This document shows, one piece after another, positions 1 through 33,110 of a stretch of 64,000 nt of DNA. The stretch is from a phage. The position numbers and the translations under genes were made by a program. The notes beneath the pieces were generated by a model. It ran no database searches. It saw only the letters and a program-made list of their open reading frames with translations, and was not told the origin of the DNA. The DNA lies in the sequence record NC_042307.1, one strand, 5' to 3'. The first letter of the stretch is position 1. Every line of letters starts with the position of its first letter.

Positions 1-466
1 GTCGCAAGGTATTTGCTTTTAATACGGCGTTCTCTAAATCTAGATATTCGAATATTCCACCATAAATATTCTTACCCTCACTATTTATTATCTGTACTTG
101 CCACTTTTGTAGCTGCTTATTCCAATGTACTCCTAAGTACCCTGATTTGCTAGAGGCAGTGCAGTTTCTATTATTAATTTGACTAGTAGATTCTCTTAAA
201 TTTTTCCATCTATTATCTGACCGTATACGATTTATATGATCTACTAAGTCAGGAATACTTCCTGTCATATACAGAAATGCCAGTCTATGGGCTAGATAAT
301 CTACCTTATCTATTTTTATAGTTATATAACCATCTTTTCTTAAATAGCCAGCAACTGCTCCGGCTTTACCTCCCCTACCTCTACTTATTTTATTAGTAAA
401 TATTCCAGTATCGGGATCATAATTTAGAAGTTCTTTTAATCTCTCTAGTGTCGGTTGTTTACTCAT
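1..466 (-). CDS. HNH homing endonuclease (MITQ/HNH_3-type), partial: C-terminus lies beyond window start
   Basis: ATG at 466..464; frame checked codon by codon and open to position 2; N-terminus MSKQPTLERLKELLNYDPDTGIF..GYIIIGID..AHRLAFLYM matches the other HNH copies in the window. Confidence 0.7.
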   Translation of the reverse strand, partial: MSKQPTLERLKELLNYDPDTGIFTNKISRGRGGKAGAVAGYLRKDGYITIKIDKVDYLAHRLAFLYMTGSIPDLVDHINRIRSDNRWKNLRESTSQINNRNCTASSKSGYLGVHWNKQLQKWQVQIINSEGKNIYGGIFEYLDLENAVLKANTLR

Positions 467-842
467 CCAACCACCCTAAATCCATACTAAGAAGCGCTTT
501 TAATCCAGTTATTCCACTTCCATAAGTATCATAACGAATAGCTGTTCTACTTTTCACTTCTAGAATATCTTCATGTTCTGTGTTTTCTAGGATTTCGGTA
601 GAAATCCCCAAGTACCCTACTTGGTCCTCCTCATCCCACCCCATATCCTCTAGAAGATTTAGAGATAGTTCTACTCTTTCATCTCCATTACCTACGGAGT
701 AGTATTCCTCTAGTTTTTTAAACTTTAAAACTAGAGAATCTAGAATTAGTAGGATTTGTTCCTTAGTAATAGTTTCTTTATCACCCTGCAAGTAATTGGA
801 GTAATTCAGAAGGGCTTGTTCTAATTCAATTTCTTTACTCAT
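459..842 (-). CDS. hypothetical acidic protein (127 aa)
   Basis: ORF track; ATG at 842 preceded by AAGGA; own promoter upstream. Confidence 0.5.
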   Translation of the reverse strand: MSKEIELEQALLNYSNYLQGDKETITKEQILLILDSLVLKFKKLEEYYSVGNGDERVELSLNLLEDMGWDEEDQVGYLGISTEILENTEHEDILEVKSRTAIRYDTYGSGITGLKALLSMDLGWLDE

Positions 843-871
843 TTTATTATCCTTTTGTACTTATTGAGTAT

Positions 872-901
872 ATTATATTTAAAATTATACCTAATAAGCA
901 A
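872..901 (-). promoter_or_regulatory. sigma70-like promoter on minus strand (TTGCTT -35 at 896-901, 18-nt spacer, TATAAT -10 at 872-877)
   Basis: read from reverse complement of 843-901. Confidence 0.4.
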
Positions 902-917
902 GTACAATTTCAAATAT

Positions 918-939
918 AATAGCCCCCGAAAGGGCTATT
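918..939 (-). terminator. hairpin (8-bp stem AATAGCCC/GGGCTATT) downstream of thyA, followed on minus strand by a modest U-rich run
   Basis: inverted repeat seen in sequence. Confidence 0.35.
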
Positions 940-943
940 TAAG

Positions 944-1783
944 TTAAGAGGACATTTTAGCTTTAAGAGCTGGATGAGGATCGTACCCCTCTAAATGGAA
1001 TGACCAAGCTGCTGTATTATTTTCTAATAAATCGTAAAGATCTATAAACTCTGGCATTACTAGAGTTGGCAGAGGGCGTGGCTTGCGTTTTACCTGTTCT
1101 TCTACCTGTTCCATGTGGTCATTATAGATATGAGTATCACCGCCACTAAAGATAAGGTAACGAGGTTTTAATCCTGTCAGTTTTGCTAATATATGCGTTA
1201 ATAAAGCATAACTAGCAATATTGAAAGGTAAACCGAGGAAACAATCCACAGAGCGTTGTGCCCATTTAAGATCTAGGTATCCATCGTTACTTACATAGCA
1301 CTGGAAGCCGTAGTGACAAGGTGGTAATGCCATTTTATCAAGTTCAGCTACGTTCCACGCAGAAACTAGATGTCTGCGGCCATGAGGATTATTCTTGAGT
1401 CCTTCAATAAGCTCTAGAATCTGATCTCGCCCACCAAAGTTACGCCACTGTTTACCATATACTGGTCCTAGATTACCCTTATCATACCCCATACTTATAG
1501 CTTGGTCTTCATAATTTGGAGTCCAGATGGTCCACTGTCCTTCGTCACGCCCAAATGTGAATACACGTAGATCATGAAGATTTGTGGAACCAGACAAGAA
1601 CCATAATAGTTCTCCTACTACGGATTTCCAAGCTAGACGTTTGGTAGTGACGGCAGGAAACCCATCACGTAGGTCGAACTTAGCATAGGAATCAAAAATT
1701 GAAACTGTGCCTGTTCCTGTACGGTCATTACGGGGTTCACCCAGTAAAATTACATCTGTCAAAATTTTTAAGTATTGTTGCAT
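944..1783 (-). CDS. thyA: thymidylate synthase
   Basis: 279 aa; ThyA motifs LPPCH, DCFLGLPFNIASYALL, GDTHIY. Confidence 0.9.
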   Translation of the reverse strand: MQQYLKILTDVILLGEPRNDRTGTGTVSIFDSYAKFDLRDGFPAVTTKRLAWKSVVGELLWFLSGSTNLHDLRVFTFGRDEGQWTIWTPNYEDQAISMGYDKGNLGPVYGKQWRNFGGRDQILELIEGLKNNPHGRRHLVSAWNVAELDKMALPPCHYGFQCYVSNDGYLDLKWAQRSVDCFLGLPFNIASYALLTHILAKLTGLKPRYLIFSGGDTHIYNDHMEQVEEQVKRKPRPLPTLVMPEFIDLYDLLENNTAAWSFHLEGYDPHPALKAKMSS

Positions 1784-2316
1784 TAATAAGTAACCAATTC
1801 CTGTACAAATCGCAGGCTGTTATCACTGTTTGCGCCAACTGCATAGACTAATCGAGTGGATTCATAGTTATAATCCAGTATCATACTATCTAGGTGTATA
1901 TCTGCCTCTAGCTTCTGTTCACTAAAGATTGTAGATACAAAAGCACTTTCAATATGCCCATGTTGATACATTTCTAGAAGAAGATTAGCTCCACCTAGAA
2001 CTACTGTTTGCTGATCTTTTAGAAAAGTAGGTAATGTATCACCTATCATTGATATGGGAGTGTAAATATCATGTGTAATATCGTCTGGCAGTGGACGATC
2101 AGCACGAATAAATAGGTCAGAAGCTCCAATCATACGTTCCCTAACGGCATATGGAAGAGCTAAATAAGTACCTGCCCCAATAATAATATTATCAGGATTT
2201 AGTACATCTAATTGTGAATAAAAAGCATCTAGTTCTTCTTTAAAAGAACCCCAGGGGAGCTTACCTCGGAGGCCGAACTCCCCATTCGGCCCAACTGCAT
2301 ACATTGCTGTAATCAT
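1783..2316 (-). CDS. dihydrofolate reductase
   Basis: 177 aa; position between thyA and nrdB; start/stop overlaps (ATGA) with both neighbours. Confidence 0.75.
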   Translation of the reverse strand: MITAMYAVGPNGEFGLRGKLPWGSFKEELDAFYSQLDVLNPDNIIIGAGTYLALPYAVRERMIGASDLFIRADRPLPDDITHDIYTPISMIGDTLPTFLKDQQTVVLGGANLLLEMYQHGHIESAFVSTIFSEQKLEADIHLDSMILDYNYESTRLVYAVGANSDNSLRFVQELVTY

Positions 2317-3459
2317 AGGAAGTCTCCAAATTCATTACCCAAATCTTTCAAGGTATCAGTAGAGGTCTCAGTTACCTGACCTACACGGTAGGCTGCACCA
2401 ATCTGGATTTCTTGTGGGGCAGGCTGTAGAGAAGTAGTATCCAACCAGTTCATGATCCACGGAATAGGGTTTTTAGTGATTACTGGTAAGTGACTAGGCC
2501 ATTCTACACCAATGTGCATAAATGCGTTACGCCCCACAAAGTACAAGTATTCTTCTAGAAGTTCTGCATTCAAACCAATCAGACTACGACCTTTGAAGAT
2601 GAAATGACCCCATTCAATTTCAGTTTTAAGAGTTTTCAGGAGTTGTGCTGGTGCTTTAGCCACTGCTTCATCTACCAGATCTTTGTCAAACTGCTGGAAC
2701 ATAATCTGGATGATTGTTTTAGACATCTGAGTATGTAGGGCTTCATCTTTAGCAATCAATTGCAGATTTTTAGCAATACCTTGCAGAATATCGTTCTCTG
2801 CTAACGCAAAGGTACATGCAAAGGATGCGTAGAACTGCATTGCTTCCAGACCGTAGATTGCAAAATAAGCATCTAACAGTTTAGCCTGAGTTTCACGCTT
2901 AACCTCAGGGAACTCAGTTTCTGGATATGTATTGTCACCACGATGATCACGTACTGCGATGAAATACTGACCTAACTGGTACAGTTCATCGAACAGCTCA
3001 ACAGAATCAGCGATACGTGCGAATGCTTCTTGGTTTTTGGTTACAGAATCAATAAATTCTGCCGGATCAGTCAGCACATTACGAATAATATTACTATAAG
3101 CACGACTATGCAGGTCTTCAAAGTAGCTCCACTGCTTGAGCATACCTTCTAGTTCTGGACGACTTACAAGCGGCATAATAGCTGCTTCAGGCGCTCGACT
3201 GATAAAGGAATCAGTTTGGGTCTGCCATGCTAAGTTCAGGAGTGTGATTTCCTGAATTTCACGTGGGAGATTGGGCCATTGTTTCTTATCTGCTTCCAGA
3301 CTGATTTCAGTTTCAGTCCAAAATTGAGAGCGTTGCAGAAGTGCCAGACGTTCTAGTTCTGGATGTGCTACACGTACATAATCTGCGATACCTAGAGAAT
3401 CGCCCCAGGAAAAGATCAGCGTTAGTATGATCCCAATTCAGGTTTAGTAAAGTAGTCAT
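2313..3459 (-). CDS. nrdB: ribonucleotide reductase small subunit NrdB; reading frame interrupted near the 5' end (see findings)
   Basis: frame 0 is open 3437..2313 and aligns with class Ia NrdB (FSWGDSLGIADY.., SQFW.., RAPEAAIMPLVSRPELE.., HSRAYSNIIRN); only plausible ATG (3459..3457) is in another frame. Confidence 0.85.
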
Positions 3460-3594
3460 TGATTTTCCTCTTTCTCACTATTTCAGGAATATTATAGCAA
3501 ATCAGGTAGCGATTAGCAGGTAAAATTATAAACTATCAAGCTCCAATAGTTTCATATCGCGCCACTCTATAGCATCCTCAAGTTCTTGGAATGT

Positions 3595-4017
3595 TTAAGT
3601 ATATTTTACACCTTTACGGGCTATCTGTACCTGGTAAGATCCGCTAGCTTTTGGATGAATATTTTTAATACCTAACTTATTATCTTTATGCGCCCCGACA
3701 TTCTTTCCGTTACTGAATCTATCAGAAGCTACTAGGTTAATAGCTCTATTATCATGTCGTATTCTATTGTCGTGGTCTACTTCAGGTGGCAGATACCCAT
3801 GAATTTTAGCAAAGATTACCCTATGTGCTAAGTAGGGGTATCCTTTAATATTTAATACTATATATCCTGTAGATTTATCTAAGGAGCCTGCTGGTTTTCC
3901 GGCATATTTGGTATTAAATGTTTTATTATCTCTAGGTCTATGAGTTAATATTCCAGTATATGGATCATAATCAAATAATTTAGCTACCTCTAGATGATCT
4001 TCTAATGTTTTTGACAT
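3595..4017 (-). CDS. HNH homing endonuclease inserted between nrdA and nrdB
   Basis: MSKTLEDHLEVAKLFDYDPYTGIL..GYPYLAHRVIFAKIHGYLPPEVDHDNRIRHDNR; start taken as internal ATG 4017. Confidence 0.7.
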   Translation of the reverse strand: MSKTLEDHLEVAKLFDYDPYTGILTHRPRDNKTFNTKYAGKPAGSLDKSTGYIVLNIKGYPYLAHRVIFAKIHGYLPPEVDHDNRIRHDNRAINLVASDRFSNGKNVGAHKDNKLGIKNIHPKASGSYQVQIARKGVKYT

Positions 4018-4082
4018 AATTATAATTTCCAACCAATTAGTATAAAAAATAAGAGGGTTATAATTAACCCTCTTTACTAGTT

Positions 4083-6410: not shown

Positions 6411-6554
6411 TTGGTTTTCCTTTTTATAGTTATCAGGATTTAGGAAATAGTTTACTTTATTCTCAGTCATTTGGCAAATAAAATTTTCTGATAGAAAAGG
6501 CCCGAGTATTTTCATACCCAGGCCTCCTGTGTTGTCAGTCTAGTTTTTGGCCAC

Positions 6555-6752: not shown

Positions 6753-6753
6753 A

Positions 6754-7800: not shown

Positions 7801-8670
7801 GTGGAATGCCCGAAAAAATTAACTCAAGAAGAAGTAGATAAATGCCTAGCCGAGCGTGGTTTTACTATGGTGGATAAGCCATATCAAAATTCTAGGTATA
7901 GGCATACGTATCAGTGTGAATACGGTCACCAATGGACAGCTAAATTTGACGCTATTAGGAATGGAAAGACCAATTGTCCTACTTGCTCTATTAGTAGCCG
8001 TAAACTAGATATTGATAAAATTAATACTATATTACAGGACAGAGGTATTACATTGTTGAACGGCTATAAAAATAGTGCCGATATAAATACTAAATTTAGG
8101 TGTGTTTGTGGTCATGAGTGGGCTACTACACTTAATAGTATAATTAATAGAGGTAGTGGCTGCCCATCTTGTGCTGCTAATAAACAGAAACTTAGTGTTA
8201 ATACTATAAATGATCGTCTTGCTGCCAGAAATATCAGAATAGTGGGTGAGTATAGTAATGCGAATACTAAGACCGCCTTTCTTTGTGGTGCAGGGCATAG
8301 GTGGGAAGCTACTCCAGGGTCTGTATTAAGGGGGAACGGTTGTCCTTACTGTAGTTATAGAGATTTAGAAAGTACTAGGATATATGTTATGTATAGCCCC
8401 TCACATGGGGTTAAAATAGGTAGGTCTAACAATCCAGAGCGTAGACTTCTACATATTAGATCTAGTAGCCACCTTATTGATTTGGAAATAATTAAAGTAT
8501 TTGAAATTGGGGAATATAGTAGTGCAGTTCGAATAGAAAAATTAGCCCATAACTACTTTAAAGAGCAGAATTGCCAGTACAAAGATTTTGACGGCGCTAC
8601 GGAATTCTTCAATATTGAACCAAAAGTAGCTATAAAGTTTATCGAGGAAATAATCAATGACAGAGAATGA
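7801..8670 (+). CDS. putative homing endonuclease: three tandem zinc-ribbon repeats plus C-terminal GIY-YIG-like/T5orf172-like domain
   Basis: repeats ..GEYSNANTKTAFLCGAGHRWEATPGSVLRGNGCPYCS; C-terminal IYVMYSPSHGVKIGRSNNPERRL; GTG start; paralogous to 60056..60730. Confidence 0.5.
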   Translation: MECPKKLTQEEVDKCLAERGFTMVDKPYQNSRYRHTYQCEYGHQWTAKFDAIRNGKTNCPTCSISSRKLDIDKINTILQDRGITLLNGYKNSADINTKFRCVCGHEWATTLNSIINRGSGCPSCAANKQKLSVNTINDRLAARNIRIVGEYSNANTKTAFLCGAGHRWEATPGSVLRGNGCPYCSYRDLESTRIYVMYSPSHGVKIGRSNNPERRLLHIRSSSHLIDLEIIKVFEIGEYSSAVRIEKLAHNYFKEQNCQYKDFDGATEFFNIEPKVAIKFIEEIINDRE

Positions 8671-10582: not shown

Positions 10583-10960
10583 ATGAAAGTAAAACCCTAT
10601 ATCATTGTTTCAACCTGTGGGAGCTACCAATTAGCGGTAGAAACCATAGAAGAAGCTATTTTTGCTGCTACTGGTGATTATTCTCATCTTGAGGGGGTTG
10701 GTTATCCTACCATTATTGGTAATTGGGTGGAAACTAATTTAGATGTTAATCCATATAATTCTGATTATGAAGATGAAGAAGAGGTACAGGATAACATTGA
10801 ATTTGTATATAAAAGAATCTTAAGTATCTATGAGCATCAGGGCAGCCCTATTGAGTATGTGGATATTACTGAAGTAGCTAAGAAGCGCCTTAAATACGTT
10901 TATGCCAATTTTTCAAATGAAGACCTGGAAACAGTTGCAGTGGAGTTTAATAATGACTAA
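10583..10960 (+). CDS. hypothetical acidic protein (125 aa)
   Basis: ORF track; first gene after promoter. Confidence 0.5.
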   Translation: MKVKPYIIVSTCGSYQLAVETIEEAIFAATGDYSHLEGVGYPTIIGNWVETNLDVNPYNSDYEDEEEVQDNIEFVYKRILSIYEHQGSPIEYVDITEVAKKRLKYVYANFSNEDLETVAVEFNND

Positions 10961-11159: not shown

Positions 11160-11349
11160 TGGCTTAAATGCTGCGCTGGAAAATGCATTGATGCAGCAGT
11201 GGGAGGCTGGATATAAGGATGGGGTTGAATCTTGTGCAAAAATAATGGATATTATGGCTAATTCTGTAGTTGGGAAAGCCCATCCAGAAGTATCTGATAT
11301 ACTCCATAACCTTAGTAAAAACTTCAGAGAGCAGGTGAAAAATGCGTAG
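11128..11349 (+). CDS. hypothetical protein (73 aa)
   Basis: GAGGAG 7 nt upstream of ATG. Confidence 0.5.
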   Translation: MAFSKPMLPDNGLNAALENALMQQWEAGYKDGVESCAKIMDIMANSVVGKAHPEVSDILHNLSKNFREQVKNA

Positions 11350-12166
11350 ATTAATTATTATTAGTGGTGCAGGTTTGAGCGTTGAAAGTGGTGTACGAGC
11401 CTTCCGTACTGATACTGCTAGTGGTAAAGCATTGTGGGATGATTATGACTTAGAAGAGGTATGTAATATTCATGCCTTTCGTGGTAGCTTTTACCACAAA
11501 ACTCACGAGTTCTACAACAAACGTCGTGAAGAGTTAGAAACTGTTGAACCCAATCTTGCACACTTGCGTATTGGTGAGTGGTATAAACAATACCCAGGTC
11601 AAGTAGTAAACTTGACTACCAACGTTGATGACCTTATTGAGCGTGCTGGTGTTCCGCATAGTGACATTCTACATATTCATGGGTATTTAAAAGAGGTTGT
11701 TGTAGCTGACAGCTACAATAGCAGTAATAAACGAGTTATTGATGTTGGGTATAGCTCTATTGACCCGGATGATTATAAATGGGTTAAACCTAATGTAATC
11801 TTCTTTGGGGAGCATGCTCCAGCGTACGCAGAAATGTACAATATTTTTGATGGTATTACTAGTCAAGATATGATAGTTGTAGTTGGTTGCTCTAACCAAG
11901 TAATTAATTTCTACTGGGAATTATTTCCTATTCTTAACCGTACTGCTGCGAAACTTATGGTAGTTAACTACTATGATAGTGCCCTAGCGGCAGAACCAGG
12001 CTATCAAGGTATGACTCGTAGTGATATGTACCAACTGGAAGATCGTGGTATTCCTTACTGGAGTAAAGGTGCGGTAGATGCTTTCAGTGACCCTGGTTTT
12101 ATCGCTCGTGTAGAAGCTCATCTAGAGGGTAGACCTTATATGCCGGGGAAACAGACATGTCCATAG
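11342..12166 (+). CDS. SIR2-family (sirtuin-like) protein
   Basis: sirtuin motifs ISGAGLSVESGV..FR, LTTNVDDLIERAG, HIHGYL, KPNVIFFGE, VVVGCS; no Zn-ribbon cysteines. Confidence 0.6.
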   Translation: MRRLIIISGAGLSVESGVRAFRTDTASGKALWDDYDLEEVCNIHAFRGSFYHKTHEFYNKRREELETVEPNLAHLRIGEWYKQYPGQVVNLTTNVDDLIERAGVPHSDILHIHGYLKEVVVADSYNSSNKRVIDVGYSSIDPDDYKWVKPNVIFFGEHAPAYAEMYNIFDGITSQDMIVVVGCSNQVINFYWELFPILNRTAAKLMVVNYYDSALAAEPGYQGMTRSDMYQLEDRGIPYWSKGAVDAFSDPGFIARVEAHLEGRPYMPGKQTCP

Positions 12167-12339
12167 TTAAATCTGTGTATACACATCCTGATGATATATT
12201 TGTATGGGCGGATGGTAGTTGGTGTTATCGATGTGAGCTATGGGAAATGGACTATAAATCTGATGACTATGGTGTCATATATGTTGATACGGTTGAGTAT
12301 GATACGTTCTTAGCAAGGGACAAAAATGGAAATAAGTAA
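12157..12339 (+). CDS. hypothetical small protein (60 aa)
   Basis: ORF track. Confidence 0.4.
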   Translation: MSIVKSVYTHPDDIFVWADGSWCYRCELWEMDYKSDDYGVIYVDTVEYDTFLARDKNGNK

Positions 12340-12832
12340 TACTCCAATTATTTTTCTAGATATTGATGGGGTGCTCAACTCGAGCATCTCTCATCACCAT
12401 GCACCTAATGATGAAAAGATTTTCTTTGGAAGTGACTGGGTTTTTAAACCGCTTCTCAAGGCTTTTCAGGACTTTATTCGTCCTTCTCCAATAATGATTG
12501 TTGGGGTATCTTCATGGTTCTCTGTCAGGAATGAGATGGAGAACGTTCAGATTATGACCGGATTAGATCTTATCGATCGTTTTCTTGGTACAACGGATTT
12601 TACTGGTGGTGGGCTATCTAGGGGTAATTCTGTTCTTCGCTTCGTTGAAAAGTATAAGCTCAAACATTGGTGTGTGCTGGATGACGCTGGTGCTATGATG
12701 TATCAGTATCCAACGGTTATAGTCAATGGTAGAACTGGAATAAATCTTCAAGATTTAAGAGCTGTTAGCTATATGTTAGAATTTAGTCCAGATCTTGAAA
12801 TGTGTAAAGCCCTACAACAATTTAAGGTGTAA
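12326..12832 (+). CDS. HAD-superfamily phosphatase-like protein (possible nucleotidase)
   Basis: N-terminal HAD motif I IIFLDIDGVLN; AAGGGA upstream. Confidence 0.45.
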   Translation: MEISNTPIIFLDIDGVLNSSISHHHAPNDEKIFFGSDWVFKPLLKAFQDFIRPSPIMIVGVSSWFSVRNEMENVQIMTGLDLIDRFLGTTDFTGGGLSRGNSVLRFVEKYKLKHWCVLDDAGAMMYQYPTVIVNGRTGINLQDLRAVSYMLEFSPDLEMCKALQQFKV

Positions 12833-12834
12833 AT

Positions 12835-13804: not shown

Positions 13805-14257
13805 ATGTCATTCACACAGCAAGAACTTTTAGATAACTTCCGGTATGAAGAGGGTAAGTTATTTAGAACTACAGGAAGAAATGCAGGGAAAGAATGTTGT
13901 GTTTCTACGGGTAACGGATATTATCGTATATCTCTAGGGAATAGGACTATGCTTCGGCATAGAGCAATATTTTTAATGCATCATGGATACTTACCTGATT
14001 TAGTAGACCATGTGAATACTATAAAAGGTGATGATCGTATTGAAAATCTTAGAGAGCAGACAGTATCCGGTAATCTAAGAAATATCAAATATAAGAAAGG
14101 AATGCATGTTTACCCTTCTGGTAGTAAGAACTGGCAAGTGGTATTTACTATTAACCGTAAACGTATAGTTAAAGGAACATATGACAACTATGAGGTTGCA
14201 TGTTCTATGGCCAAGATGTTTAGAGGTCAATTATACGGTAGGGAATCAATCCAGTAA
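13805..14257 (+). CDS. HNH homing endonuclease
   Basis: MSFTQQELLDNFRYEEGKLF..GYYRISLGNRTMLRHRAIFLMHHGYLPDLVDHVN; GGAGGTGAGG upstream of ATG 13805. Confidence 0.7.
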   Translation: MSFTQQELLDNFRYEEGKLFRTTGRNAGKECCVSTGNGYYRISLGNRTMLRHRAIFLMHHGYLPDLVDHVNTIKGDDRIENLREQTVSGNLRNIKYKKGMHVYPSGSKNWQVVFTINRKRIVKGTYDNYEVACSMAKMFRGQLYGRESIQ

Positions 14258-17580: not shown

Positions 17581-17815
17581 AAAATGGGAAACAAGGAAGT
17601 TTCCAGTAAAAGAACGTAAAGTTCCTGTTTATGATACTTCGGAGAAGCTATGTAGGGTGGTTCCTGCTAGACTAGCATCCATAAATGGCATAGGCGCATG
17701 GTTGCTAAAGCAGAGAAAGCAAAGCATATCATTACGTATATCTTTTGAGTTAGACCAAATCTATAGAGAATTGGGAGAATTGATTAAAGAAAATGATAAC
17801 ACAGGAAGAGGTTAG
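17564..17815 (+). CDS. hypothetical small basic protein (83 aa)
   Basis: ATG overlaps the stop of the upstream gene. Confidence 0.35.
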   Translation: MTVKNKKWETRKFPVKERKVPVYDTSEKLCRVVPARLASINGIGAWLLKQRKQSISLRISFELDQIYRELGELIKENDNTGRG

Positions 17816-18251
17816 AGAGGCTTTTGAGTATGATCCTGAAACAGGCCATCTTAAATGGAAGAAAACAAGACAGAAGAGTCTAGTAGGTAAGTTTGCCGGT
17901 GGTAAACATAAAGGGTATATAAGAATAGGGTTTAAGCGTAGGCACTGGGGAGAACATCAGCTGGTATTCTTATATCATAAGGGGTACATACCAGAAGAGA
18001 TAGACCACAAAAACAGGATTAAAGATTGCAACTTTATAGAGAATTTAGAAGACTCCAATAGATCTAAGCAAATGCACAATATTAATGTACGTAAAGACAA
18101 TAAGTTGGGTGAGCCTAATATCTACATGAGGGGCGATAAATATTGTGTGCTAATGCAGAAAGGATCTATTCGTAAGTACCAGCAGTGCAATACTATAGAA
18201 GAGGCTAAAAAAGTTAGGGCTAATTTTAAGTCCGAACTCTATCCAAATTAA
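17793..18251 (+). CDS. HNH homing endonuclease
   Basis: MITQEEVREAFEYDPETGHL..GYIRIGFKRRHWGEHQLVFLYHKGYIPEEIDHKNRIKD. Confidence 0.7.
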   Translation: MITQEEVREAFEYDPETGHLKWKKTRQKSLVGKFAGGKHKGYIRIGFKRRHWGEHQLVFLYHKGYIPEEIDHKNRIKDCNFIENLEDSNRSKQMHNINVRKDNKLGEPNIYMRGDKYCVLMQKGSIRKYQQCNTIEEAKKVRANFKSELYPN

Positions 18252-20562: not shown

Positions 20563-21534
20563 ATGACTAATGTAAAAGAATTTATTAAACGCTGTCAAGA
20601 AGCATATTATCAAGGCATGTCTTTAATCTCAGATGAAGAATATGATCGCCTGGTAAAACGCTTCCCGTTAGAGGAAGAGATCGGGCCTAAGGGTGATATT
20701 CCACATCTATATCGTATGTATTCTTTACAGAAAGTTTACTATAACCGCGGTGATAAACCACCATTCAATCCGTTAGGTCAAGTAGAAACTGATAAGTTAG
20801 ATGGTTGTGCAATTTCTCTGCTATATATTAATGGCGAATTTGTTCAAGCACTAACTCGTGGTAATGGTATTCTGGGGAATGATGTCACAAGCAACGTAAG
20901 ATTGCTGAACATTCCTAAAAAGATTTCCCAAAAAGTACCTACTCAAATCACTGGTGAAGTTCTAATTACAAAAGAAGTAGAAAATAAACGTAACTTTGCC
21001 TCTGGTGCTATTAACCTCAAAGATAGCGATGATTTCGTACAACGTATCGGGGAAGGTGGTTTAATCTTCGTTGCATATGGTATCCAGTGTTCTGCTGAAT
21101 CTGTAGGTATTACAGAAGCATATTTAAAAGATATGCTTTGGCTAGAGAATGAGAACTTCTTAACAGTTGTTAATGTGCGTTCCTTCTTTAAATGGATTCC
21201 GACGGACGGTAAAGTTGTTCGTATTAATGACAACAACAAATTCTTCCGCGAAGGCTGGACTAATAAATTTCCTCGTGGAGCATTCGCTGTTAAAGAGGAT
21301 GAAGAAGGCGAGATTACAACTCTTACTAAAGTTGAATGGCAGGTAGGGGCTTCTGGTAAAGTAACTCCAGTTGGTTATTTCGAACCGGTAATTATTGATG
21401 ATGCTACAATTGTTAAGGCGACTCTTAATAACGTTGATTATATTAACTCTCTCGATCTAGAGATCGGTTGCCAGATTCGAGTGATTCGTGCTGGTGGTGT
21501 AATCCCATGCATAGTAGAGCGAGTATACGATTAA
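20563..21534 (+). CDS. NAD-dependent DNA ligase, N-terminal polypeptide (adenylation and OB domains)
   Basis: catalytic lysine motif KLDGCAIS; ends ..GGVIPCIVERVYD where bacterial LigA continues into the zinc finger. Confidence 0.85.
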   Translation: MTNVKEFIKRCQEAYYQGMSLISDEEYDRLVKRFPLEEEIGPKGDIPHLYRMYSLQKVYYNRGDKPPFNPLGQVETDKLDGCAISLLYINGEFVQALTRGNGILGNDVTSNVRLLNIPKKISQKVPTQITGEVLITKEVENKRNFASGAINLKDSDDFVQRIGEGGLIFVAYGIQCSAESVGITEAYLKDMLWLENENFLTVVNVRSFFKWIPTDGKVVRINDNNKFFREGWTNKFPRGAFAVKEDEEGEITTLTKVEWQVGASGKVTPVGYFEPVIIDDATIVKATLNNVDYINSLDLEIGCQIRVIRAGGVIPCIVERVYD

Positions 21535-21706: not shown

Positions 21707-21736
21707 ATTTATATAAATTGATAAGGAAGAAATTTG

Positions 21737-22516
21737 ATGAAAATCGAAATTCCAACACAATGTCCCTCTTGTGGTTCTAAGCTAGATCTTGTCAACGGAC
21801 AATTATTCTGTCGTAATAAGTCCAACTGTCCAGCGCAATCAAGTAAGTTAATTGAGAACTTCTGTACAAAAATGAAGTTAAAGGGCTTTGGCCCAAAAAC
21901 TATTGAGAAGCTGGAGCTGACGAAGATTTCAGAACTATTTTACCTAACCGAAGAAGATTTGGTTAGAGCCGTGGGTAGCAAGGTTGCCGCTAAGTTAATT
22001 AGCGAATTAAATACTAAAGTTCGCGGAGACATTGACTTTGGTTCAGTTCTCGGTTCTTTAGGAATCACTCTAATTGGAGAGGTTGCAGCAAAGAAATTAT
22101 CCCAAAATTGCACTAGCTTCCATGATGTGAAGGCTGACGGCAAGGCTGGAGAAAATTACAAAGCCTGGCTAAATTCCCCACAAGGCAAGGATGTTATTGA
22201 ACTACCGTGGAAATTTTCAACTGGTATTAAGGGCACTAAAGCTGACGTCATCATTACAGATGAATTAGTTGCCCAGCCAAATGGAATCGCGGTATGTATT
22301 ACCGGATCTTTGCAAGATTTTGCAAATAGAACGGATGCAACAAACTATTTAGAAAGTCTAGGGTATACGGTTAAGAAATCCGTTACCAAAGACGTCAAAT
22401 ACCTAATCTGTGAGGATGAATCGAAGCGTTCCTCCTCATCTTATAAGAAAGCCGAAACGAATGGGATAGAAATCCTGTCGATTAAAGAACTATTGGAGAA
22501 AAATAATAATGTCTAA
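21737..22516 (+). CDS. NAD-dependent DNA ligase, C-terminal polypeptide (zinc finger, HhH, BRCT)
   Basis: CPSCGSKLDLVNGQLFCRNKSNCPAQ zinc finger; ATG 21737 (track start is TTG 21734). Confidence 0.85.
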   Translation: MKIEIPTQCPSCGSKLDLVNGQLFCRNKSNCPAQSSKLIENFCTKMKLKGFGPKTIEKLELTKISELFYLTEEDLVRAVGSKVAAKLISELNTKVRGDIDFGSVLGSLGITLIGEVAAKKLSQNCTSFHDVKADGKAGENYKAWLNSPQGKDVIELPWKFSTGIKGTKADVIITDELVAQPNGIAVCITGSLQDFANRTDATNYLESLGYTVKKSVTKDVKYLICEDESKRSSSSYKKAETNGIEILSIKELLEKNNNV

Positions 22517-23358: not shown

Positions 23359-24831
23359 ATGACCTTGTTTAACGTGCAAGCTGTAGTGTTGAAGATGCTT
23401 CTAGCTTCCGAACAGAAGCAAATAGCATTGGAAACATTCTCAAAACTGCATAAAGATCATTTTAATGACGCTTTCTCCTCAATTTACCAAGCCGTCCAGA
23501 ATTATTATAAAAAATATAACACAATGCCGTCCATTGACGCACTGATGCTTGAGGCTAATAGGAACGCCCGCCTTTCTCAAGCTCTAGTCGTTTTAGCTAA
23601 CACTCAAATTCCAGAAGTTAGCATGGAACAGGCACTTGAAGTCCTAGAGGCCGAGTATACGCAGGATTTATTCCTGAAGCTTCTAGAAACAGACGTGCTT
23701 CAAGATTTAACAATGCTGGATCAGGGAGAAATTCTTAACCGAGTTGCCTCCCTTCACTTAAAATTAGAAGAGAAAGTAACGAATACTGGAAAAGTATTCA
23801 ACGCAGATAACATGCGTATTTTCCAGAGAGAAGAAGATACCAAACTGAACTTAATCGCTCTTGGTATTTGTAATGAGTTCGACGCTCAAATTGGTTTAGC
23901 TCGCACAGAAACGTTACTGCTTGGTGGTTGGCGTGGTACTGGTAAATCCATTATCTGTTCAAACATACAGGTTCAGCAATATTTGAATGGAGATATTGCT
24001 CCATACTTCTCAATTGAGATGAAAGAACATGAAGTATTTAGACGTAATCTAGCCATGTTAGCTGGTGTATCAGCACTAGCAATGCGTAATAATACTCTAG
24101 AAGGTGCAGCTCTGTTGAGATTAGCCAGAACTAGAGCTAGAATGTTTAACGGTGGTGAAGAGCTTTTCGATAACTTCGTTAAACAATACACAATGGCTAA
24201 GATGAGTGATTTCTACGATATGGAAAGTAAGCTAATAGAAGGATATGAGCTACATACTCCTATGATTATTGTTTATGATCCTGAGCTGTCTATTACAACA
24301 GTTGACGTAGAATTAAATAAATTAGTTGCTAGATATGGGGATAAAGTTACAGTAGCTTTACTTGACTATATTAACCAAACCCGACTTCCAGATTCTAAAA
24401 CCATTGATATGTATGACTGGAAAGAACAGATGGTTGTTAGCTCGTCTTTCAAATCCCTCTGCCAGAAACATAACGTGGCTGGTGTAGCTCCTTACCAGAT
24501 TGATCAAGATGGTAGAACACGTATGTCAAAAGGGATTCTTGATTCCGCAGACATGGCTGCTAATCTTAATGCTGCAAAAGCTGATAATGGTCAAGGTGCT
24601 ATTATGTTTGACTTCGTTAAGACCCGTTCTTCTGATAGCGTGAAGTTTATGCCTAAAATGAACTGGGAAACCCTGCGGATGGATAACACTACCAACCTAG
24701 CAATGGAAGATATATCTCAAATGGAAGCTGAGTTCGTTATCCCTATTGAGAAGGATAAGCCAGCTCAATCTAAACGTGCTAAGAAAGACAAAGCTGAAAA
24801 TTCAACAGGTGAACAGGCCAGCGATATATGA
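23359..24831 (+). CDS. replicative DNA helicase (DnaB-like)
   Basis: Walker A GGWRGTGKS, DnaB-like LDYINQ motif; AAAGGAGA upstream of ATG 23359. Confidence 0.6.
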   Translation: MTLFNVQAVVLKMLLASEQKQIALETFSKLHKDHFNDAFSSIYQAVQNYYKKYNTMPSIDALMLEANRNARLSQALVVLANTQIPEVSMEQALEVLEAEYTQDLFLKLLETDVLQDLTMLDQGEILNRVASLHLKLEEKVTNTGKVFNADNMRIFQREEDTKLNLIALGICNEFDAQIGLARTETLLLGGWRGTGKSIICSNIQVQQYLNGDIAPYFSIEMKEHEVFRRNLAMLAGVSALAMRNNTLEGAALLRLARTRARMFNGGEELFDNFVKQYTMAKMSDFYDMESKLIEGYELHTPMIIVYDPELSITTVDVELNKLVARYGDKVTVALLDYINQTRLPDSKTIDMYDWKEQMVVSSSFKSLCQKHNVAGVAPYQIDQDGRTRMSKGILDSADMAANLNAAKADNGQGAIMFDFVKTRSSDSVKFMPKMNWETLRMDNTTNLAMEDISQMEAEFVIPIEKDKPAQSKRAKKDKAENSTGEQASDI

Positions 24832-25361
24832 TAACACAGGAACGACTAAAAGAACTGTTTGACTACTCCCCAGAGACTGGGGAGTTTATTAGAAAAGTAT
24901 CTAGAGGCAACCAGAAAGCCGGGAGTATAGTAACTAGAAAGGATTCAAACGGTTATATAATTATCGGTATAGATGGTAGGGATTATAAAGCCCATCGTAT
25001 GGCCTTCCTATTTATGGAAAACACGTTACCTGAAAAAGTAGACCATATAAACCGTATACGAAGTGATAATCGATGGTGTAATCTAAGAGACGCCACAGCC
25101 CAGGAAAATAGTAGAAATAAAACCGCATGTAGTAAGTCTGGATATTTGGGAGTTGCTTGGGATATAGAAAAACAAAGATGGAGAGTTCAAGTAAGAGACT
25201 CTAATAGCACTCTTAAAAATGGTGGCAGATTTAAGTATGAAGAGCTAGAGCTAGCTGTAAATTCAGCAAATATATTAAGGACTAAGTTACATGGAGAACG
25301 TGCTGTTATAGAATTTTTTGATACATCTAATTATCCTTCACTGGAGGAGTTAAATTCATGA
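24828..25361 (+). CDS. HNH homing endonuclease
   Basis: MITQERLKELFDYSPETGEF..GYIIIGIDGRDYKAHRMAFLFMENTLPEKVDHINRIRSDNR; ATGA overlap with helicase stop. Confidence 0.75.
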   Translation: MITQERLKELFDYSPETGEFIRKVSRGNQKAGSIVTRKDSNGYIIIGIDGRDYKAHRMAFLFMENTLPEKVDHINRIRSDNRWCNLRDATAQENSRNKTACSKSGYLGVAWDIEKQRWRVQVRDSNSTLKNGGRFKYEELELAVNSANILRTKLHGERAVIEFFDTSNYPSLEELNS

Positions 25362-26248
25362 GTAGAATAACAGAGTTACTTGATCTAAAAGGAATTGAGT
25401 ACAAGGATACAGGCGGGGATATTCTTATATGCTGCCTGAATCCTGAACACGAGGATAAACACCCAAGTTTGCGTATTGATCCTGAAACCGGGATTATGCA
25501 CTGCTTGAGTTGCGGTTTTGGCAAAGGTATACCTAGTATTTATCATTATTTTAATGAGACTCAATATAGACAATCTCCAAGACTATCCCAAGTACGTAAA
25601 AAAATTTCTGAGATTAGAAATGGATCTACGAATCTTGCAATCCCAGAATCTGCTTTTCTTTTTGAAGGTGATTTCCGAGGTATCAGTTCTAAGACCTTAA
25701 AGAAATATTTTGCTTTCCAACACCAAGAGGACTGGGAAGGCAGAATTGTATTCCCAATCACAGATGCTGTTGGACGCAATATCCTATTTTTGGGTCGTTC
25801 TATAAACAGTTCTGCCCCTCCTAAATACTTAGTAAAACCAAAACAAGTTTCACCGCCAATTTTTCCTGTACGATATAATACTCCAGTTCTTATTCTAGTT
25901 GAAGGCATCTTTGATATGCTGAACCTAGAGGATAATGGTATAGACTATGCTTCTTGCTGCTTTGGTACACATCAGTTTACATCTGATAACATTGCTGATA
26001 AGTTCAGTCCTTACATTATTGCTGGAGTAAGAGTAGTTGTTATCTTGCTAGATAATGATGCCTCTGGTAATAAAGCTGCTCAAGCACTAGCGAAGCTAAT
26101 TCGTACAAAAACACGTTTAACACCTGTAGTTGGTAACTTCCTTCTTCCAGAAGGTAAAGACCCAGGTGATTTAAATAAAGAAGAGATCGATATGTTGGCT
26201 CAACGTATTGAAATTTTAGTTGCCGAATCGCTCAAAGATTTGGTATAA
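25358..26248 (+). CDS. DNA primase (DnaG-like)
   Basis: CHC2 zinc finger CCLNPEHEDKHPSLRIDPETGIMHCLSCGFGKG; TOPRIM motifs LVEGIFDMLNL and LDNDASG. Confidence 0.75.
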   Translation: MSRITELLDLKGIEYKDTGGDILICCLNPEHEDKHPSLRIDPETGIMHCLSCGFGKGIPSIYHYFNETQYRQSPRLSQVRKKISEIRNGSTNLAIPESAFLFEGDFRGISSKTLKKYFAFQHQEDWEGRIVFPITDAVGRNILFLGRSINSSAPPKYLVKPKQVSPPIFPVRYNTPVLILVEGIFDMLNLEDNGIDYASCCFGTHQFTSDNIADKFSPYIIAGVRVVVILLDNDASGNKAAQALAKLIRTKTRLTPVVGNFLLPEGKDPGDLNKEEIDMLAQRIEILVAESLKDLV

Positions 26249-28878: not shown

Positions 28879-29368
28879 TTTCAAATTGCCCGTCTATGCG
28901 TTACGGGCGTTTGTATCAATTGAGCAGGAAGGTGATTATTCCATAATTACAACAAGATATAATAAATATGTGTTAGATAACAGGGAGTTGCCTGGCACAT
29001 TCTCTCAACGTAGGTTAGCCTTATTTGAGAAGCGGAAAGAATTACCGTACAAGCTCTATCCTATTAGAGGTAGAATATCAATGTTGTCTCAATTAGTTGG
29101 GTCAAAGCGTAGCCAATTTATAGATTCTGATGGAAATCTTATTAACTGGAAGAAAACTACGTTCTATGATGTTGTCACCGCTAAAGTTTTGCATTCAGCT
29201 AGAATTTATAACGGAAAATACCAATGCTATGTAGCTAAAGTTCCATATCCATTTGTATTATCCTATGTTCCAGCTTATATAAGCTATATTCTGGTAAATA
29301 ATAGCCCTGTTATTTATCAAGTCCATCAAGAGGAGCCTGAAATTCCTAGACTTAGAATAAAATTATGA
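28871..29368 (+). CDS. hypothetical protein (165 aa)
   Basis: GTG start overlapping polymerase stop. Confidence 0.45.
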   Translation: MLNFKLPVYALRAFVSIEQEGDYSIITTRYNKYVLDNRELPGTFSQRRLALFEKRKELPYKLYPIRGRISMLSQLVGSKRSQFIDSDGNLINWKKTTFYDVVTAKVLHSARIYNGKYQCYVAKVPYPFVLSYVPAYISYILVNNSPVIYQVHQEEPEIPRLRIKL

Positions 29369-30711: not shown

Positions 30712-30712
30712 C

Positions 30713-31246
30713 ATGATAACTCAACAAAGATTAAAAGAATTACTAATATATGATCCAGATTCTGGCCACTTTATTAACAAGGTGTCCAGGGGCAGAGGAG
30801 GTAAAATTGGGGCTATTGCTGGAAGTCCTGATAAAGATGGATATATAATCATAGGTATAGATAGGAAATCTTATAAAGCCCATCGCTTAGCCTTCTTGTA
30901 CATGGAAGGCTATATGCCTACTGAAGTAGACCACGATAATAGAATACCTTATGATAATAAATGGAGTAACTTAAAAGATTCTTCTCATTCGGAAAATATG
31001 AAAAACCGTAACCCTTATAGTAAATCTGGTTATAAAGGAGTTACGTGGAATAAGGTTAAGAAGAAATGGCAAGTACAAGTGTGTAGGTCAGATGGTTCTA
31101 CAGTTTATGGTGGGTTATTCCCTTATGAAGAATTAGAGTTAGCTATAAATAAAGCTAATGAACTTAGAGTACAGCATCTAGGTATGGATTCCAGGCAAGA
31201 ACTATTTAAAGGATATATTTGCCGACGTGAGGACTTAGATAAGTAA
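30713..31246 (+). CDS. HNH homing endonuclease
   Basis: MITQQRLKELLIYDPDSGHF..GYIIIGIDRKSYKAHRLAFLYMEGYMPTEVDHDNRIPYDNK. Confidence 0.75.
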   Translation: MITQQRLKELLIYDPDSGHFINKVSRGRGGKIGAIAGSPDKDGYIIIGIDRKSYKAHRLAFLYMEGYMPTEVDHDNRIPYDNKWSNLKDSSHSENMKNRNPYSKSGYKGVTWNKVKKKWQVQVCRSDGSTVYGGLFPYEELELAINKANELRVQHLGMDSRQELFKGYICRREDLDK

Positions 31247-31254
31247 AATTGCAT

Positions 31255-31283
31255 TTGGCAACTGCTCATAATTATTGTATAAT
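31255..31283 (+). promoter_or_regulatory. T5-type promoter TTGGCA-17-TATAAT (first of a tandem pair)
   Basis: followed by ACATAAATTTGAGAGAGAA leader without an ORF. Confidence 0.55.
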
Positions 31284-31354
31284 ATACACATAAATTTGAG
31301 AGAGAAAGTTTCGGATTGATAAGAAAGTCCGAAGCAGAAAAATAAAAATTGTAC

Positions 31355-31384
31355 TTGTCAAATCCTCCCGATTTAATGTATAAT
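31355..31384 (+). promoter_or_regulatory. T5-type promoter TTGTCA-18-TATAAT (second of a tandem pair)
   Basis: followed by ACATAAATTGATGAGAGA leader and ATG 31412. Confidence 0.55.
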
Positions 31385-31411
31385 ATATACATAAATTGAT
31401 GAGAGACAAAA

Positions 31412-31774
31412 ATGAAATTCTTTGATTACGAGAGAATTTACCTCTTAGCTAGAGGAAACTCCGACCTGATTGTCAAGCTATTTAATAGAATGCTTGCAGA
31501 GCCTGATGCTCACCAACTACTGGTCGGTTATTCATTCATCTTGAATGAATCAACTATTGTTGATAACCCTTACAAATTGTCTAATAGACAACTGGCAGAA
31601 TATCTAGGAATTCTAAGTCTACGAAATTATGCCGAATATAAGTTTACAAACGATCCGAGTTTGGACATGCAATATGTTCCCATATGGATACCACGTTCTG
31701 TAATCGACACTAACCCACTAATTGCAATCAATAAATCGAAGATAATCTTTAAAGAGGAAATAAAATATGGCTAA
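31412..31774 (+). CDS. hypothetical protein (120 aa)
   Basis: ORF track. Confidence 0.5.
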   Translation: MKFFDYERIYLLARGNSDLIVKLFNRMLAEPDAHQLLVGYSFILNESTIVDNPYKLSNRQLAEYLGILSLRNYAEYKFTNDPSLDMQYVPIWIPRSVIDTNPLIAINKSKIIFKEEIKYG

Positions 31775-32540
31775 GTCTTGGGGCGAAACTACTGGCGGTT
31801 CTAACGATAAAATCGACTTCCTGAAATTCAACAACGGTGTAACTCGCGTTCGTATCGTTTCTGGTGTTCTTCCACGTTATGTCTACTGGCTGACTAACAA
31901 AGATGGTAATGCAGCTCCATTTGAGTGCCTGCGTTTCAACCGTACTAAAGAGAGCTTCGTTCGCGGTAAAGCTGACCCGATTCACGAAATGGGCTTCTTC
32001 GAAAAAGAGCTGGACAAAGATGGTAATCGTGTTCCGCTGAAACCGAAGAAAAACTACATTGCTTTCGTTATCGACCGTTCCGATAACAAACTGAAAGTTA
32101 TGGAAGTTAAAGCTACTATCCTGAAAGGCATCCAGTCTATCATGAAGCAGCTTGAACTGGCAGATCCATTCGATATCGATATTTCTATCGAGAAGAAAGG
32201 TAAAGGCTTCGATACTGAGTACGATGTACAGCAGATCGCAGCAATGCAGTTCCAGATGAAACTAAAAGATCCTACCAGTGCTGAGTCTAAACTGCACGCC
32301 GCTGATGTTGATATCCTCGGTGAAGCTATGTGTGATGATACTGGTGAGTTCATCAAGTTCGAAAAGGTTCCTTCTCTGGAAGAAACCTACCCGGTTCCGT
32401 CCTACGAAGAGCAGAAAGAAGCTATTCTCGCCTTCATGGAAGGTCGTGAGAAGCAAGACGGCGGTGACGCTAAGTCTGGTGGAGATGCTGGTTCTCAGAA
32501 AGGCATCGACGCTGAAGCTGCTAGCGATCTGGACGACTAA
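31767..32540 (+). CDS. putative single-stranded DNA-binding protein with acidic C-terminal tail
   Basis: acidic tail ..DAEAASDLDD; host-optimal codons; AGAGGAAA upstream; position within replication block. Confidence 0.4.
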   Translation: MAKSWGETTGGSNDKIDFLKFNNGVTRVRIVSGVLPRYVYWLTNKDGNAAPFECLRFNRTKESFVRGKADPIHEMGFFEKELDKDGNRVPLKPKKNYIAFVIDRSDNKLKVMEVKATILKGIQSIMKQLELADPFDIDISIEKKGKGFDTEYDVQQIAAMQFQMKLKDPTSAESKLHAADVDILGEAMCDDTGEFIKFEKVPSLEETYPVPSYEEQKEAILAFMEGREKQDGGDAKSGGDAGSQKGIDAEAASDLDD

Positions 32541-32546
32541 TAAACC

Positions 32547-32574
32547 AAGGGGAGCTACGGCTCCCTTTCTTTTT
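32547..32574 (+). terminator. rho-independent terminator
   Basis: GGGAGC-TACG-GCTCCC then TTTCTTTTT. Confidence 0.7.
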
Positions 32575-32579
32575 AACTT

Positions 32580-33110
32580 ATGAGAAATAAGCTATATTCC
32601 TTATTTTTGGAAGACCCTAAAAAATTCATTTTATTAGTAAATAAATTCAGAGAAAGATTTTCCTATGATCCTGAGTCCGGGCTACTCTCTAGGAAAATAG
32701 GAACGGGTGGTCAGTTACCAGGATCTATAGTAGGCACGGATAATGGAAAAGGATATTTAAGAACCTCATTTAATAAGGAGCAGTATCTTGTACATTTAAT
32801 TATTTATGCCATGCAGACTAATGAAATGGCAGAAGTAGTAGATCACAAAGACTTAGATAAGAAGAATAATAGATGGAGTAATCTAAGACCAACTAATAAA
32901 TCAGGTAATGAAAGAAACACAAGCGTAAGATCTAATAGTACCACAGGTGTTAAAAATGTATATTGGATACCTGGGAGACATAAGTATAGGGTTCAGTTTA
33001 AAATCCACGGAGAAACAAAATACTTTGGATATTATGATACTATTCAAGAAGCAGAAGTAGTAGCTGATAGGGAACGTAGGCGACTACACGGAGAATTTGC
33101 CAGATCATGA
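32580..33110 (+). CDS. HNH homing endonuclease
   Basis: ..FRERFSYDPESGLLSRK..GYLRTSFNKEQYLVHLIIYAM..VDHKDLDKKNNRWSNLR. Confidence 0.7.
   Translation: MRNKLYSLFLEDPKKFILLVNKFRERFSYDPESGLLSRKIGTGGQLPGSIVGTDNGKGYLRTSFNKEQYLVHLIIYAMQTNEMAEVVDHKDLDKKNNRWSNLRPTNKSGNERNTSVRSNSTTGVKNVYWIPGRHKYRVQFKIHGETKYFGYYDTIQEAEVVADRERRRLHGEFARS

Follow-up and report, generated by a model that had tools for sequence, protein, structure and literature searches.

A 64,000-nucleotide stretch of phage DNA (sequence record NC_042307.1), referred to here as the window, carries seven genes that we propose are free-standing homing endonuclease genes of one family, situated at the borders of genes in the early region that serves replication and nucleotide metabolism, and spread by homing. 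We put the probability of this interpretation at roughly 80%. The genes, all of which are HNH_3-type open reading frames (ORFs), are named H1 to H7 by their position in the window (Table 1). They belong to a single protein family, are sporadically distributed among relatives, are precisely inserted, evolve under purifying selection, and, at H4, H5, and H7, are linked to particular haplotypes of the flanking DNA. The window derives from a T5-like phage (Tequintavirus, Demerecviridae) whose closest relatives are Salmonella phage Shivani and Shigella phage SHSML-45, with 90 to 99% identity in blocks.

The seven genes form one family with an HNH core and an AP2-type domain

An earlier note on this DNA, made from the sequence alone, had listed seven HNH ORFs of a "MITQ type," and each of them was found at its listed position and confirmed as a member of the HNH_3 family. 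All seven score above the gathering threshold for Pfam HNH_3 (PF13392; 31–54 bits versus a cut-off of 24.8), and all match the "HNH endonuclease" group PHROG 99 (E = 1e-39 to 1e-59). When a hidden Markov model built from H1 to H7 was compared with a six-frame translation of the window, exactly these seven were recovered (E = 1e-46 to 1e-72). The same model gave no further match below E = 1 in the window; all seven genes lie in 1–33 kb and none in 33–64 kb. Because identity to H5 is only 27 to 56%, the genes are old paralogues rather than recent duplicates.

The MITQ label applies to H4, H5, and H6 and not to the other four, and the motif quoted for the family holds approximately. Five residues (H56, D72, H73, N85, and N97 in H5 numbering) are invariant in all seven proteins, and the AHR element of the quoted motif is present in only four. 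The H7 motif has diverged, with VHL in place of AHR and a DHKDLDKKNNR segment. A profile of H1 to H7 matches the intron endonuclease I-HmuI (PDB 1U3E) across the catalytic core (E = 2.4e-5), wherein the conserved residues of the seven align with the I-HmuI core HR...DHKDGNKDNNLSTNL. A single-sequence search of PDB sequences with H5 returned only a spurious lectin repeat match.

An AlphaFold model of H5 (pLDDT 87.7) includes a β-hairpin followed by a helix at residues 44 to 64. In a Foldseek comparison, the modeled C-terminal domain matches the AP2 domain of AtERF1 (1gcc; TM 0.75, rmsd 2.1 Å, 61 columns, probability 1.00), with further matches to 7wq5, 5wx9, and 3igm, and it has the three-stranded sheet on one helix that is expected of an AP2 fold. 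By sequence the resemblance to AP2 is weak: the Pfam AP2 family is matched only by H6 and below the cut-off (E = 0.002), and the seven-gene profile matches the AP2 domain of TEM1 with E = 0.23. The architecture of H1 to H7 is an I-HmuI-like HNH (His-Me finger) core joined to an AP2-type DNA-binding domain, as in a known family of homing endonucleases (PMC10448857).

Table 1. Positions of the HNH_3 genes and of other features discussed, with the basis for each assignment
Feature	Position	Strand	Basis or remark
H1, HNH_3/AP2-type gene	2..466	-	Pfam HNH_3 (54 bits), PHROG 99; 3′ end runs past the window edge
H2, HNH_3 gene, nrdA-nrdB intergenic	3595..4017	-	Pfam HNH_3; shortened by a nonsense codon, frame goes on to ~3529
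H3, HNH_3 gene, upstream of the replication-origin-binding helicase gene	13805..14257	+	Pfam and PHROG matches
H4, HNH_3 gene, overlaps 3′ end of small ORF 17555..17815	17793..18251	+	
H5, HNH_3/AP2 gene, between DnaB-like helicase and primase	24828..25361	+	
H6, HNH_3/AP2 gene, after D10 helicase	30713..31246	+	Pfam HNH_3 and weak AP2 match
H7, HNH_3 gene, between D11 SSB and D12 nuclease subunit	32580..33110	+	
Predicted H5 recognition region, 5′ end of primase gene	25362..25435	+	Diversity contrast, diagnostic sites
T5orf172 (GIY-YIG-like) endonuclease gene, upstream of nrdD	7801..8670	+	Pfam T5orf172, MUG113, CapR, DUF4379
Second T5orf172 endonuclease gene, between sciA-like and large terminase genes	60056..60889	-	Pfam T5orf172, CapR, DUF4379
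Conserved Cys/His-rich protein, sciA-like	59629..60066	-	PHROG 3497; no Pfam match
nrdB with +1 frameshift (extra G near 3400)	2313..3459	-	tblastn and nucleotide alignment

The genes are sporadic and occupy discrete sites

To assess the distribution of each gene, the gene and ~400 bp of flank were searched against 50,697 phage records, and the fraction of matching records that have the gene was counted. H1 is present in 33 of 145 records, H2 in 47 of 442, H3 in 19 of 440, H4 in 35 of 464, H5 in 70 of 438, H6 in 8 of 440, and H7 in 28 of 441. Presence overall ranges from 2 to 23% of related records (~145–460 per gene). T5 itself carries the H5 type and is without H1, and the H6 site holds another HNH gene in some other records.

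A second comparison made use of 28 genomes, comprising the homologous ~45 kb of 27 genomes rebuilt from IMG/VR loci, plus Shivani. In this set, H3 is found in four genomes, H4 in two, H5 in nine, H6 in two, and H7 in three. The sites are strictly binary, being either occupied or empty with a discrete length, which between anchors is 14 bp at the helicase/primase junction, 50 to 51 bp at the H4 site, and 54 to 58 bp at the H7 site. Across this 37 kb there are at least 11 sites of HNH_3 insertion, four of which are empty in the window (nrdA|6555, ~17560, 23277/23366, and ~35906), and the cassettes that vary at the 10 or more sites all encode nucleases of one family. Compared at orthologous positions, as the earlier note had advised, every one of the seven genes is variable, and none is fixed at an identical position in every relative. 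The high HNH density that had been remarked on is likewise borne out, since the window has seven HNH_3 genes in this region versus a median of one (range 0–7) among the 28 relatives.

The spacer between nrdA and nrdB is occupied in 13 and empty in 14 of the 27 reconstructed genomes, and at least four different HNH types are found there. In the T5-type HNH protein of this spacer (T5, DT571/2, NR01, and SHSML-45), PAQN replaces AHR and the first conserved His is missing, with DH...N kept.

H1 is always co-present or co-absent with ORF 459..842 (- strand), which encodes a 127-amino acid protein of PHROG 26840 (function unknown) that has no Pfam match. The two form one ~950-bp cassette adjoining thyA, in place of which T5 has 65 bp. 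ORF 459..842 may be cargo of the H1 endonuclease gene.

Insertions are precise

Junctions were defined by alignments of occupied and empty alleles. The insertions are ORF-precise, the empty sites are uniform and seamless, and the genes lie between host genes or at their ends, such that the host genes are left functional. All seven are co-oriented with their neighbors, and the neighbors given in the earlier note for H2, H5, H6, and H7 are correct (Table 1). ATGA-type overlaps with those neighbors, previously described as frequent, were found for H5 on both sides and for H7 on the 3′ side; H4 and H6 adjoin their neighbors in other ways.

The H5 insert measures 530 bp, with an ATGA repeat at its boundaries. 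Its first codon, which overlaps the helicase stop codon, is the ATG used by primase in empty alleles, and a new ATGA at its end serves as the restart for primase. H7 has taken the former ATG of D12 (ATG AGA A..) as its own start, and D12 is given a new, ATGA-overlapped start. Because H7 supplies this start, codon 2 of D12 is changed from Arg to Lys. H6 begins 1 nt past the helicase stop codon, and the insertion has taken the place of the final ~8 codons of the D10 helicase. The start of H4 lies within the 3′ end of the small upstream ORF. Directly after the ends of H3, H4, and H6 are T5 early-type promoters (TTGCAA, TTGCTT, or TTGGCA, then TATAAT).

We propose that the genes, which have no obvious promoter of their own, ride on host-gene expression, and three routes can be envisaged. 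H5 and H7 would take the start codon of the downstream gene and return an ATGA-coupled start, H4 would exploit its overlap with the upstream ORF, and H3, H4, and H6 would be expressed as the final part of a transcription unit, ahead of the next early promoter. A more tentative idea, which we regard as unlikely, is that start-codon capture by H5 and H7 makes translation of primase and D12 dependent on coupling to the endonuclease ORF. If so, coupling would select against endonuclease loss or truncation and could help explain the intact ORFs, and it would represent a stabilization strategy that differs from the promoter-in-gene arrangement described for T4 mobE.

The genes show signs of movement and of retained function

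On a neighbor-joining tree of backbone genes, the seven are placed almost at random: the minimum numbers of gains and losses are near those obtained with shuffled labels (for example, 7 versus 8.3 for H5, with a total minimum of 34 events over 10 sites). Several of the genes are more alike between genomes than is the backbone around them. H4 is 99% identical to its counterpart in S124, versus 83 to 90% for the flanks and 89.7% for the backbone. Similarly, H3 and its AKFV33 counterpart are 98.8% identical on a backbone of 91.2%, and H7 is 97.6% identical to that of NR01 on a backbone of 90.4%. In the latter comparison, identity in D12 is 98.5% over the initial 200 nt and falls to 94% thereafter.

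Orthologues of the seven are full length in relatives. Ratios of nonsynonymous to synonymous substitution (dN/dS) for diverged pairs are 0.01 to 0.12 (with the full range extending down to 0.0), which indicates purifying selection. For H5 versus T5, dS is 0.40 and dN is 0.022, a ratio of 0.05; the ratios are 0.0 to 0.01 for H4 (0.01 versus SP3), 0.06 for H3, and 0.11 for H7. A shortened H6 orthologue in the RefSeq annotation of Shivani was considered as a case of decay and rejected, as the stop-to-stop frame is full length and 99.4% identical.

A mosaic boundary is also evident at H7 (32140–33510). The D11 flank is ~99% identical to one set of Salmonella phages whose D12 flank has no megablast match, and other phages match only the D12 flank, at 84 to 92%. 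This boundary fits the notion that nuclease genes mark recombination boundaries.

Flank haplotypes point to candidate targets

A base that is common to all carriers of a gene and never found in empty alleles was taken as a diagnostic position. For H5 there are two, which fall within the primase gene at +47 and +62. Nucleotides ~5 to 78 of primase are near-invariant in 19 H5-less genomes of diverse clades, whereas in all 10 H5 carriers this segment has substitutions at three-base spacing, like third-codon-position changes, that make up at least four haplotypes. Measured over the interval listed in Table 1, nucleotide diversity is 0.5 to 0.8% among the empty alleles (n = 19) and 8 to 17% among the carriers (n = 10). 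Elsewhere, the H5-less genomes have a nucleotide diversity of 3 to 7.5%. These patterns suggest that the H5 target lies within the initial ~80 nt of primase, around GAC ACA GGT GGG GAC ATC CTC ATC TGT TGT, and that carriers may escape self-cleavage.

Carriers of H7 share a private haplotype at the 5′ end of D12, whose initial ~250 nt contain 19 diagnostic positions. H4 is accompanied by a private upstream haplotype of ~90 bp (~17665–17760), with 18 diagnostic flank positions and a 4-bp indel. On this basis H7 is predicted to target the 5′ end of D12, and H4 the 3′ end of the small ORF that it overlaps.

Proposed homing mechanism

By analogy with T4 SegF, T4 MobE, and SPO1 I-HmuI, we infer from these sequence features that H1 to H7 as a family encode nucleases that act on neighboring targets and home. 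Upon co-infection with a gene-less relative, the enzyme would nick or cut a conserved sequence in the relative's neighboring essential gene. Recombinational repair from the carrier would then copy the endonuclease gene and some flank into the empty site, a process called intronless homing. The carrier allele would be protected by silent substitutions in the target.

Alternative explanations

The strongest competing explanation, albeit an unlikely one in our judgment, is that the HNH-AP2 proteins are kept for the benefit of the phage, whether through marker exclusion and competition, AP2-type regulation, or translational coupling of the downstream gene. Such a benefit would account for the strong purifying selection at the amino acid level (dN/dS 0.01–0.1) and for the fact that H5 and H7 own the translation start regions of primase and D12, which restart at the ATGA overlap. 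The AP2/ERF DNA-binding fold of the modeled C-terminal domain would likewise be in keeping with a regulatory role, and exclusion of co-infecting relatives has reportedly been shown for I-HmuI and I-HmuII. However, each gene is absent from 77 to 98% of close relatives, which replicate without it, and the same essential genes have their own start codon in empty alleles. Furthermore, competition by cleaving rivals would be the same activity as homing, and it would constitute an added benefit rather than a distinct mechanism.

It is also conceivable, though quite improbable, that these are ordinary accessory genes that are shuffled and lost by general recombination and deletion, with their patchiness reflecting ancestral presence and repeated loss. 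T5-like phages are highly mosaic, and segments without nucleases vary as well (10589–10959 and the Sir2 region). The statistical comparison of divergence near the insertion sites, described below, is not significant, as passive shuffling would allow. Five observations argue in the other direction: different HNH types occur in the same intergenic site; the HNH genes are closer between genomes than are the flanking essential genes; the empty sites are uniform and seamless; every varying cassette at the 10 or more sites encodes a nuclease of the same family; and the predicted H5 target is frozen in empty alleles and diversified at silent sites in carriers. The last of these patterns is not expected from passive loss.

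We give almost no credence to the proposal that earlier invasions left the ORFs behind as decaying, inactive relics, for although the premature stop in H2 removes the last helix of the DNA-binding domain and the H7 motif has diverged, six of the seven are full length (H1 as far as the window shows), all invariant catalytic residues are kept, orthologues are intact elsewhere with dN/dS well below 1, and none is fixed in relatives.

Homing is the explanation that we favor, and a number of observations weigh against it. Rampant recombination in these phages alone could scatter any accessory gene over a "backbone" tree. Co-inheritance of flanks with target polymorphism is seen for H4, H5, and H7, but the signal is faint or missing at H2, H3, and H6, for which the set has few carriers; H3 and H6 have few or no diagnostic flank positions. 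When the whole H5 model was compared with the PDB by Foldseek, no HNH structure was returned and only the AP2 half was matched. Because of this outcome, the HNH assignment rests on the matches to Pfam and to the I-HmuI profile. Identity in 100-bp bins within 200 bp of insertion sites (90.6%) is not significantly lower than in the rest (92.3%; p ~0.10 by Mann–Whitney and circular-shift tests). The dimorphic nrdD gene dominates the distant bins, and of the 30 bins with the greatest divergence, 12 are near insertion sites. Finally, codon 141 of H2 carries an AAA>TAA nonsense change relative to S124, FFH_1, and SP01. The last helix of the AP2 domain is lost and the frame continues past the stop. 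This copy is probably inactive, as fits the decay phase of a homing cycle.

The view of a genome under active homing that was advanced in the earlier note is partly supported by the sporadic distribution, the near-random placement on the backbone tree, the purifying selection, the flank haplotypes, and the identity of the genes above that of the backbone. It is to be restricted in that H2 is truncated by a nonsense codon and not all seven genes are likely to be active.

Relationship to known systems

T4 SegF is a free-standing enzyme that cleaves a neighboring conserved gene at a distance from where its own gene is inserted. Polymorphisms in the target protect carriers, and localized marker exclusion results. 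H5 and the primase gene are suggested to behave similarly, with the differences that SegF is a GIY-YIG enzyme and that its mechanism was demonstrated by crosses and cleavage mapping. Intronless homing by SegF is reviewed in PMC2988022.

The closest functional parallel is T4 MobE, which is encoded by a free-standing HNH gene between nrdA and nrdB that lacks its own promoter and is transcribed together with nrdA (PMC2790892). MobE nicks the 5′ region of nrdB in the endonuclease-less phage T2, flanking markers are co-converted, and the nrd region has been called a hotspot of endonuclease insertion (PMC2790892). H2 is alike in being an HNH-family, free-standing gene at the nrdA-nrdB intergenic position. 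The two differ in that H2 belongs to another phage family and is nonsense-truncated, and the activity of MobE is established by experiment whereas H1 to H7 are known from sequence alone.

Among solved structures, the closest by profile to H1 to H7 is I-HmuI (I-HmuI and I-HmuII being enzymes of the Bacillus phages SPO1 and SP82), which has an HNH_3-type core (HR...DH.....N...NL). Whereas the seven genes are free-standing and have an AP2-type domain, the I-HmuI gene resides in a group I intron of the DNA polymerase gene, and its product has a C-terminal DNA-binding region of another kind. I-HmuI is a site-specific nicking enzyme, and markers that flank it gain a competitive advantage in mixed infection.

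The HNH-AP2 homing endonuclease family was noted by Magnani et al. 2004, as that study is cited in PMC10448857. Such genes are enriched in the vicinity of genes for the replisome and ribonucleotide reductase and sit at recombination boundaries (PMC10448857). The HNH-AP2 or "IPA-HNH" genes of ICP1-like phages resemble H1 to H7 in being free-standing and in having an N-terminal HNH and a C-terminal AP2 domain. The HNH domains of ICP1 IPA-HNH proteins are too divergent for Pfam HNH_3, whereas the window genes match it directly, and the subfamily is likened to ours by architecture. According to a 2004 study as cited in PMC10644984 and PMC2330249, the H-N-H site-specific endonucleases of T5 itself are in the tRNA gene cluster. 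That cluster is outside the window, and its enzymes are likened to H1 to H7 by type. In the BF23 genome paper, more of the variation between T5-like genomes is attributed to homing endonuclease genes than to any other source (PMC10644984).

The phenomenon is already known, homing endonucleases being a recognized main source of mosaicism in T5-like phages, and in the GenBank record of Shivani the orthologues of H3, H5, H6, and H7 are already labeled HNH homing endonucleases with AP2/ERF domains. The additions made here are only the site-by-site occupancy map and the testable target predictions. The value is mostly that of annotation: the window is from a T5-like phage unusually rich in homing endonuclease genes, and the true mobile genes are set apart from a conserved gene annotated as a nickase and from a frameshift that is probably of the sequencing type. 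The predicted targets could seed work on intronless homing in T5-like phages, in which only the F-Tfl enzymes of the tRNA region have been characterized. Of practical relevance to phage engineering and therapeutic cocktails, genes of this kind can bias the inheritance of markers in mixed infections.

Other endonuclease-like genes and the nrdB frameshift

The earlier note had counted about ten endonuclease-like genes in the 64 kb. That number holds (seven HNH_3 genes, two T5orf172 genes, and the gene at 59629..60066), except that the last of these is no homing gene. The two T5orf172-like genes were validated by Pfam, each scoring 34 to 43 bits for PF10544 against a cut-off of 20, and both are patchy. 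The gene upstream of nrdD, which also encodes CapR and treble-clef zinc-finger domains, is present in six of the 28 genomes, and the second gene is present in 73 of 442 records.

Two allele classes of nrdD exist, with ~68% nucleotide identity to each other. All six genomes with the T5orf172 gene upstream of nrdD have the nrdD class of the window, and 20 of the 22 genomes without it have the other class, the exceptions being DT571/2 and NR01. The T5orf172 gene and the window-type nrdD allele seem to travel as one block (7801–10483).

The gene at 59629..60066 had been described as a classical HNH gene and counted with the homing genes, an assignment that does not stand. It is kept in relatives that lack the adjacent T5orf172 gene, where it is annotated as sciA (DT571/2) or as a nicking site-specific endonuclease. 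The T5 genes sciA and sciB are late-region genes that genetic mapping has linked to genome nicks (PMC3517423). The position of the window gene in the late region, between portal and terminase, and its conservation both fit sciA; the link to nicking comes from depositor annotation together with the mapping. By these sequence comparisons it is a conserved gene annotated as a nickase, outside the mobile set.

Disruption of the nrdB 5′ end had been tentatively ascribed to homing, and truncation of nrdB by HNH insertion was rejected in favor of a 1-nt insertion in a run of G residues, which is unrelated to any HNH gene. In a tblastn comparison with Shivani NrdB, residues 19 to 382 are in one frame (98% identity) and residues 1 to 18 in another. 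The nucleotide alignment has GGGG at ~3400, near codon 19, versus GGG in nine relatives. This frameshift is ~60 nt inside the gene and ~190 bp from the H2 ORF, and the start region and the promoter-like intergenic sequence are intact. The extra G could be a real inactivating mutation or a homopolymer sequencing error.

Genome context and further observations

In megablast searches with 1–20 kb and 20–40 kb of the window, 470 to 560 phage records were matched, nearly all from T5-like phages of Salmonella, Escherichia, and Shigella. Genes are arranged as in the early region of T5, with thyA, dihydrofolate reductase, nrdB, nrdA, and PhoH on the - strand. The + strand carries a T5orf172 endonuclease, nrdD, Sir2, the origin-binding helicase, two ligase ORFs, and the DnaB-like helicase, and it continues with primase, DNA polymerase, D10 helicase, D11 SSB, and D12/D13. 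Late genes occupy the - strand from ~38 kb onward.

The NAD-dependent DNA ligase is encoded by two ORFs (20563..21534 and 21734..22516) that are ~200 bp apart, an arrangement also annotated in Shivani. A 1.3-kb segment (11203–12514) that includes the gene for a full Sir2-family protein (11342..12166) is absent from Shivani and SHSML-45 and is present in all other relatives, with a length that varies from 1051 to 1646 bp. Interpretation of 11202..12515 as a T5orf172 insertion that splits the Sir2 gene was rejected, as the Sir2 ORF is complete and the deletion is in Shivani and SHSML-45. The ORF beside the Sir2 gene at 12326–12832 (+) scores E = 4e-19 against PF18143, the HAD domain of "Swiss Army Knife" RNA repair proteins.

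The NrdA proteins of Shivani and SHSML-45 contain a 305-amino acid intein at the point corresponding to ~5535–5539, where the window allele of nrdA is intein-free and has Thr at the +1 position. The intein begins with CYSEDTEV and ends with VCGN|S, and its LQADGS motif is LAGLIDADG-like in appearance.

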